A stretch of 1,031 bases of DNA. It comes from Escherichia coli (lineage in GTDB: Bacteria; Pseudomonadota; Gammaproteobacteria; Enterobacterales; Enterobacteriaceae). Position 1 is the first letter of the stretch, and the number at the start of each line of letters is the position of its first letter. Positions 1 through 371 of this stretch are shown here, piece by piece. The notes below the pieces were generated by a model that was given only the letters and a program-made list of their open reading frames with translations, was not told where the DNA came from and did no database searches. Both the position numbers and the translations under genes were made by a program. The stretch lies in the NCBI RefSeq assembly GCF_003334335.1, contig NZ_QOWQ01000129.1; one strand, 5' to 3'.

Positions 1-371
1 TAAAACGTCGACGGGAAACACTTACCGGGACCAATGTTGTACGGACAGAATGACGCGATCCCCGCTTTCTGGGGTTCGGTCAGCGGCACTCTGATGTTTT
101 TCTCCACCCACGCCAGCGCTTTATCACGCTCAATGGCGTTAACCTGGTCGCATTTTTCCTTCGACAACTTCATGCCCGGAACGACAGGTTTGCCATCCAC
201 CATGATGGCACCACGGCAGATGGTCCAGATACCTGCACCATCACGGTATGCCGTGGTGTGGTTGCCTTCCTTTTCATCCAGAAACTGGTCGAGAATGTCA
301 GGCGCAGGCGCACCAGCGGCAATCAGCGCCAGAACGGCAGCCGACAGGCCGTATTTGATTTTGGTGTTCAT
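1..371 (-). CDS. R: Phage endolysin, glycoside hydrolase family 24 (T4-lysozyme-like), SAR type; 3' end lies beyond the window (partial, about 123 of an expected ~165-180 codons)
   Basis: Minus-strand ATG is the complement of 369..371, and an in-frame stop (complement of 387..389) lies just upstream, so this is the first start. My translation reads MNTKIKYGLSAAVLALIAAGAPAPDILDQFLDEKEGNHTTAYRDGAGIWTICRGAIMVDGKPVVPGMKLSKEKCDQVNAIERDKALAWVEKNIRVPLTEPQKAGIASFCPYNIGPGKCFPSTF..., open to the window edge. Residues E35, D44 and T50 (codons at 267..269, 240..242, 222..224) have the E-x8-D-x5-T spacing of the T4 lysozyme catalytic triad. Residues ~7-24 (KYGLSAAVLALIAAGAPAP, about 300..353) are a Gly/Ala-rich weakly hydrophobic segment typical of SAR domains. 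From memory the protein closely resembles lysozymes of E. coli lambdoid prophages (R / rrrD / rrrQ type); this was not verified by search, and the symbol R is the generic lambdoid name. Confidence 0.9.
   Translation of the reverse strand, partial: MNTKIKYGLSAAVLALIAAGAPAPDILDQFLDEKEGNHTTAYRDGAGIWTICRGAIMVDGKPVVPGMKLSKEKCDQVNAIERDKALAWVEKNIRVPLTEPQKAGIASFCPYNIGPGKCFPSTF

Follow-up and report, generated by a model that had tools for sequence, protein, structure and literature searches.

The 1031-base stretch of Escherichia coli DNA analysed here (contig NZ_QOWQ01000129.1 of assembly GCF_003334335.1; hereafter the window) contains the first two-thirds (5' end) of R, the endolysin gene of a lambdoid prophage of the type found in the Shiga toxin (Stx) phage 933W and the Qin prophage. 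The R protein is probably a signal-anchor-release (SAR) endolysin, an enzyme tethered to the inner membrane until a pinholin releases it, and in this case most likely activated without thiol chemistry. The SAR behaviour is ascribed to R by analogy with the literature on its 94%-identical counterpart, the R protein of 933W (933W R). A previous reading of the sequence alone had proposed a SAR domain devoid of cysteine at residues ~7-24, and regulation probably of the phage 21 R (R21) type, or something different, and not of the P1 Lyz type. The translation and the alignments bore out the lack of cysteine and the exclusion of the P1 type, and an R21-type activation step can be proposed.

The window includes two genes, both on the minus strand. 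The R reading frame starts with an ATG at positions 371-369 and runs leftward off the window edge, with the first 123 codons of a 177-residue protein present (positions 3-371). An in-frame TGA lies six codons 5' of this ATG, and no other start codon was found in the interval. The 123 residues are 100% identical to the 177-residue lysozyme WP_001092866 of E. coli strain CE10, where the full-length protein is encoded at 6660-7193 of the locus. Matches to Pfam PF00959 (Phage_lysozyme; residues 33-167, E 2.9e-24) and to the PHROG 7 endolysin family (E 1.9e-62) identify R as a GH24 (T4-type) prophage lysozyme; the NCBIfam search of R gave a sub-threshold match alone, to a gene-transfer-agent endolysin model (68 bits, with a cut-off of 315). 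In the multiple alignment R was 93.8% identical to 933W R (177 residues), 89.3% to RrrQ of Qin, 36% to RrrD/R21 and 25% to P1 Lyz. The UniRef names are SAR-endolysin (ENLYS_BP933) for the 933W protein and Probable prophage lysozyme (LYSQ_ECOLI) for RrrQ.

The T4-type lysozyme motif, Glu-X8-Asp/Cys-X5-Thr (PMC8228626), is present in R as E35-X8-D44-X5-T50 (positions 222-269, minus strand; E35 at 267-269, D44 at 240-242 and T50 at 222-224). These three residues align one by one with E35, D44 and T50 of R21 (PDB 3HDE). Among 41 aligned sequences E35 and T50 were invariant, and D44 was present in at least 90%. Positions 222-353 correspond exactly to codons 7 (TAC, Y) to 50 (ACC, T) of R.

A SAR domain is recognised as a weakly hydrophobic stretch, free of charge and with much Gly, Ala, Ser and Thr, that comes after N-terminal basic residues, and SAR endolysins in general have two or three basic residues ahead of the hydrophobic stretch (PMC9239132). 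The N-terminus of R reads MNTKIK-YGLSAAVLALIAAGAPAP-DILDQFLDEKEG. Residues 1-6 (MNTKIK; positions 354-371) form a positively charged n-region with K4 and K6, and residues 7-24 (YGLSAAVLALIAAGAPAP; positions 300-353) constitute the presumed SAR domain, with 18 uncharged residues, 56% G/A/S/T, no cysteine and two prolines in its A21-P22-A23-P24 end. The share of L/I/V/F/M/W is 28%, compared with 52% in the membrane anchor of Rz from the same locus. This composition is of the SAR type, although the same measures do not separate the segment from a signal peptide. A basic N-terminus followed by an uncharged, Cys-free segment of 18-21 residues was kept in 101/101 full-length cluster representatives, recovered from several enterobacterial genera (Escherichia, Salmonella, Citrobacter, Klebsiella, Yokenella, Hafnia and others), indicating that the pattern is not due to chance. 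No representative (0/101) had a cysteine before the equivalent of residue 28, and none was found in the N-terminal hydrophobic segments of more distant Stenotrophomonas and Klebsiella phage relatives (74% and 51% identical). A Cys-free tether is thus, as judged from these alignments, normal for the R family, and it is also found in R21; the absence of cysteine confirmed here is no departure from the norm.

The positions of the cysteines bear directly on the mode of activation. P1 Lyz (PDB 1XJT, 1XJU) resembles R in being an exported GH24 enzyme with a weakly hydrophobic N-terminal segment, a helix between this segment and the catalytic Glu, and equivalents of Cys136 and Cys172. It differs in having Cys13 in the SAR domain and a cysteine in the triad itself (E-X8-C-X5-T). 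In R no cysteine occurs in residues 1-51, the residue aligned with the triad cysteine of P1 Lyz is Asp44, the neighbours of E35 are K34 and G36, and the nearest cysteine is C52. Lyz103 of ERA103, as reportedly described by Kuty et al. in 2010, has cysteines flanking the catalytic Glu in addition to one in the SAR domain; R has neither. With Asp at residue 44 and no cysteine beside E35, both the P1 and the ERA103 types of thiol regulation are excluded by sequence. R21 is reportedly (Sun et al. 2009) regulated by conformation and not by thiols, the released SAR segment refolding into the enzyme body and repositioning the catalytic Glu. Like R21, R has no cysteine in its presumed SAR domain.

The structural prediction would be compatible with such a conformational step. 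The AlphaFold2 model of R (mean predicted local distance difference test, pLDDT, 89.3; predicted template modelling score, pTM, 0.85) has a predicted T4-lysozyme-like fold, with a helix at residues 11-18 (pLDDT about 95), a break, and a second helix at residues 23-35 (pLDDT 93-98). Foldseek matched the model with probability 1.00 to the phage lysozymes 9KBQ, 7M5I, 3HDE, 4ZPU, 2ANV and T4L; the longest alignments, of 180-181 columns and TMq 0.73, paired it with 3HDE (full-length R21) and 4ZPU (RrrD), and truncated R21 (3HDF) gave 0.53. Residues 25-35 (DILDQFLDEKE; positions 267-299) form an amphipathic helix leading into catalytic Glu35, in both the multiple alignment and the model.

The following sequence of events can be proposed. 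The protein would be exported by Sec, guided by its basic start and its weakly hydrophobic segment (residues 7-24); for close homologues the literature describes export that needs no holin and an enzyme restrained until it comes off the membrane. The segment, probably not cleaved by signal peptidase, would be kept on, holding the enzyme tethered and inactive at the outer face of the inner membrane during virion assembly. When the S21-like pinholin triggers, the proton motive force would collapse and the segment would exit the bilayer. Activation would then follow without thiols: the released segment most likely packs on the catalytic domain as in R21, an R21-like refolding step in which helix 23-35 would place Glu35 correctly. 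The muramidase would cut the wall, and Rz/Rz1 would complete lysis.

The pinholin partner foreseen by the sequence-only reading was found in matching loci. The genomic context was read in CE10 and in the Stx2a-converting phage Stx2_95, which are 99.2% and 95.4% identical in DNA to the window. The gene order is stx (Stx2_95) or tolA (CE10), a SASA-family esterase (NanS-p), DUF1378 and DUF826 open reading frames (ORFs), a 71-residue class II holin, a DUF1327/YdfR ORF, R and Rz. The holin is identical to S of 933W at 70/71 residues and to EssD of the DLP12 prophage at 57/71, and it matches PHROG holin families 20 and 9876. In DLP12, essD stands directly before the gene of the R21-like lysozyme RrrD, and Stx-phage holins of this 71-residue S21-like type have been placed in the pinholin family of phage 21 S (PMC10462455). 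As the earlier reading had stated, the holin gene itself is outside the window, whose ORFs are R and a member of the DUF1327 family. The Rz/Rz1 genes, which it had advised looking for in the flanks, were found downstream of R: Rz belongs to the PHROG 13 spanins, and an embedded 61-residue ORF with a lipobox (VSAC) and a proline-rich tail has the pattern of Rz1. For 99% of Stx phages, a survey of genomes predicted a pinholin and a SAR endolysin whose N-terminal domain is R21-like (PMC8136144).

The closest characterized relative is 933W R, of which Stx phages and E. coli prophages carry many copies. It has the same length, the same E35/D44/T50 triad and eight cysteines as R, and is accompanied by the same Rz/Rz1 and S21-like holin. 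Its N-terminal segment is the same except for the n-region and the P22S and D25E differences, so that it ends in ASAP where that of R ends in APAP. 933W R was cloned by the Young laboratory as the SAR endolysin of phage 933W; expressed alone it produced spheres in a small fraction of cells, and together with the Mu releasin gp25 it gave significantly more spherical cells (PMC9239132).

Several observations weigh against this reading. The 933W R experiment showed releasin-stimulated wall degradation, not membrane release of the uncleaved protein, and release from the inner membrane by pinholin or depolarisation is regarded as the 'definitive test' of SAR (PMC9239132). With 18 residues, the uncharged stretch of R is shorter than the 24 of both R21 and P1 Lyz. 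Its best 19-residue interval gave a crude Hessa-scale sum of +5.6, compared with +0.8 for R21 and +0.5 for P1 Lyz, and inside the +2.2 to +8.1 of five cleavable signal peptides (OmpA, DsbA, MalE, T4 RI and PhoA); these sums, calculated without position and length terms, are a rough guide only. With this length and signal-peptide-like sum, the earlier description of the segment as a typical SAR domain goes somewhat far. In addition, the model is not independent evidence, since 3HDE is probably in the training set of AlphaFold2 and the prediction may echo that structure. Finally, the activation geometry of R21 need not transfer literally to R, because the helix before Glu35 is separate from the hydrophobic segment: DILDQFLDEKEG aligns with the N-terminal helix of the cytoplasmic lysozymes T4 E and P22 gp19, where R21/RrrD has GPSGNDGLE. 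Activation could just as simply consist in tether release that frees helix DILDQFLDEKEG at the surface of the membrane.

These properties raise the alternative that the segment is an ordinary Sec signal peptide, cut by signal peptidase I (for example after Gly20) to give a soluble periplasmic lysozyme that would be checked by other means until the holin fires, as in the model for Lys44 of Oenococcus phage fOg44. The short hydrophobic core (about L9-A21) within 18 uncharged residues would suit it, as would a hydropathy sum that falls among those of the OmpA, MalE, DsbA and PhoA signal peptides and away from those of the SAR domains in R21 and P1 Lyz. A scan with the -3/-1 rule passed cleavage after A18, A19 and G20, the last of which (AAG/APAP, the slash marking the cut) resembles the OmpA site (AQA/APKD), and the remainder after cleavage (PAPDILDQFLDEKEG...) would have the helix-then-Glu layout of T4 E and P22 gp19. 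There is precedent for both steps: the proposed SAR domain of T4 RI was later shown to be a cleaved signal peptide (PMC8385771), and exported endolysins with cleaved signal peptides are known (PMC6116005).

The end of the segment argues in the other direction. It contains two AXA-type sites, AGA/P and APA/P, both with proline at +1, where this residue prevents cutting by signal peptidase I (PMC8385771). A proline at residue 22 or 24 (motif A21-x-A23-x, positions 300-311) was kept in 99/101 representatives, that is, at -2 or +1 of the sole canonical AXA signal-peptidase site; residues 21-24 were ASAP in 60, APAS in 21, APAT in eight, APAP in six, ATAP in two and VSAP in two, the two exceptions being ASAS. 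The sites still allowed would leave a c-region of only 0-3 residues, and AlphaFold2 places residues 11-30 in the fold with pLDDT 95-98. Since, moreover, R is linked to an S21-like pinholin gene, and 933W R gave few spheres alone and more with a releasin whose targets are SAR endolysins, cleavage as an ordinary signal peptide is considered unlikely. Two other kinds of signal were ruled out: the N-terminus has no cysteine and hence no lipobox, which dismisses a lipoprotein, and there is no twin arginine (MNTKIK in R, MSRKLR in 933W), which dismisses a Tat signal.

With an equally low probability, the 933W R/RrrQ family could constitute a distinct type of tether, derived from a signal peptide, left uncleaved by a mobile proline and activated unlike R21. 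The contrasts with R21/RrrD (PDB 3HDE, 3HDF and 4ZPU) are nevertheless set in a common framework, as both have the GH24 fold, the same triad numbering, Cys52 and three further cysteines aligned, a Cys-free segment and an S21-type pinholin partner. R21 has a 24-residue glycine-rich segment that almost reaches the catalytic Glu (…VLITGPSGNDGLEG), with no separate helix before it, whereas R has an 18-residue alanine-rich segment with an APAP end, followed by the T4L-like helix 25-35. R also differs by a 7-residue insertion with Cys150 and Cys157 and by the Cys109/Cys118 pair.

The full R protein has eight cysteines, at residues 52, 74, 109, 118, 136, 150, 157 and 172, the first four of which are encoded in the window. 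Cys52 (positions 216-218) was correctly numbered in the earlier reading and does lie two residues past Thr50; the others it had listed as C75, C108 and C117, each off by one from the actual 74, 109 and 118. Nearly all family members have Cys52, which corresponds in the alignment to Cys52 of R21/RrrD (VWTVCHG); its place beside Thr50 is therefore inherited and no peculiarity of R. Cys74 (positions 150-152) also aligns with a cysteine of RrrD/R21 (TKAECKAL), as do Cys136 and Cys172. Cys109, 118, 150 and 157 are specific to the family. Cys109 and Cys118, in FCPYNIGPGKCF (positions 18-47), are nearly invariant in it, and R21, P1 Lyz, T4 E and P22 gp19 lack both; Cys150 and Cys157 lie in the insertion relative to R21, with AlphaFold2 block means of 78 and 61. 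At none of the eight positions does either cytoplasmic enzyme, T4 E or P22 gp19, have a cysteine. This distribution would fit structural disulfides formed only in the exported members, and four structural disulfides formed in the periplasm are the simplest reading of the eight residues.

The cysteines of the catalytic domain could instead regulate R by themselves, for instance through a Cys52 disulfide rearranged on release, which would be a third kind of disulfide switch. The presence of exactly eight cysteines in 100/101 representatives, the closeness of Cys52 to catalytic Thr50 and the four family-specific cysteines would be in keeping with this. However, an even number leaves no obvious free thiol for isomerisation, and the released segment supplies none; four of the eight have equivalents in R21/RrrD, where regulation is reportedly conformational, and Cys150 and Cys157 are in a low-confidence insertion far from the triad in sequence. 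Such a switch is very improbable. Least credible of all is a stable type II anchor that stays in the membrane for good, with the enzyme acting while tethered: K4 and K6 would orient the N-terminus inward and the uncharged stretch is just long enough for a membrane, but the hydrophobicity of the segment is very low (28% L/I/V/F/M/W and +5.6, against 52% and -3.0 for the Rz anchor), two prolines lie near its end, and the close homologue 933W R was treated as releasable (PMC9239132).

The second gene of the window is the 3' part of a DUF1327/YdfR-family ORF, with 207 codons and a TAG stop at 408-410 (positions 408-1031, minus strand). Its homologue in Stx2_95 has 329 residues (5635-6624 of the locus) and belongs to PHROG 1085, of unknown function; Pfam DUF1327 covers residues 1-112 only, and no known domain was found in the C-terminal ~200 residues, the part encoded in the window. 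The ORF takes the position at which, in 933W, the holin gene adjoins R; 933W itself lacks the ORF, and in CE10 it carries an annotated disruption upstream of the window. The Qin prophage of K-12 resembles the window-type loci in its essQ-ydfR-rrrQ-rzpQ/rzoQ order, with a DUF1327/YdfR gene between holin and lysozyme, but its YdfR has 103 residues, unlike the long form of Stx2_95. A holin or antiholin was ruled out for this ORF, which has DUF1327 at its N-terminus and no holin-family match; NCBIfam gave no match for the holin, the DUF1327 ORF or Rz. Inserted between pinholin and endolysin, it may modulate lysis. The GC content is 46% in this part and 54.7% in the R part, as expected of a mosaic insertion.

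A 36-nucleotide spacer (positions 372-407; …GGCTGAATATTTAATATATCC-ATG) separates the stop of the DUF1327 ORF from the start of R, and it is identical in Stx2_95. No Shine-Dalgarno-like run was found in it. In 933W, where S is next to R, 4 nucleotides lie between the S stop and the R start, with a GGGGAG Shine-Dalgarno at the junction; the stop codon of ydfR and the start codon of rrrQ overlap in Qin. The scan of the window revealed no promoter-like sites and three weak terminator-like patterns (1.0 ± 1.1 in shuffled sequences), none of them in the R leader. One is a hairpin at 957-984 on the plus strand, a 10-bp stem followed by TTTTTCAATT, located inside the DUF1327 ORF on the strand opposite the lysis genes, and known as a pattern match only. 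Downstream of R, the CE10 locus has an ORF for a 37-residue 'hypothetical protein' at 7415-7528, ending 1 nucleotide before the Rz start; the ant antirepressor gene occupies this place in 933W.

The gene is widely distributed. The whole window matched E. coli chromosomes with DNA identity up to 99.2% (CE10), and Stx2_95 with 95.4% across its full length; 605 complete genomes covered at least 80% of it, and 4184/5426 complete genomes matched some part. The exact WP_001092866 protein was found on at least 1000 contigs. Some partial members (126-163 residues) of the 90%-identity cluster of R are named 'terminase TerL endonuclease subunit, partial' or 'terminase large subunit, partial' at NCBI, names that are probably annotation errors or chimeric calls.

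R is thus among the commonest prophage genes of E. coli, and its detection has little weight as a discovery, as prior records already cover the gene and its class, which UniProt names and the Stx-phage literature discusses, along with the partner holin and the Cys-free segment. The cassette of pinholin and SAR endolysin adjoins stx and governs the lysis that frees Shiga toxin. If the 933W R/RrrQ family did prove to be a distinct sub-type, activation would differ from that of R21, for example by just setting free a helix held at the surface of the membrane, and this would suggest that cleavable signal peptides can give rise to SAR domains through proline insertion.

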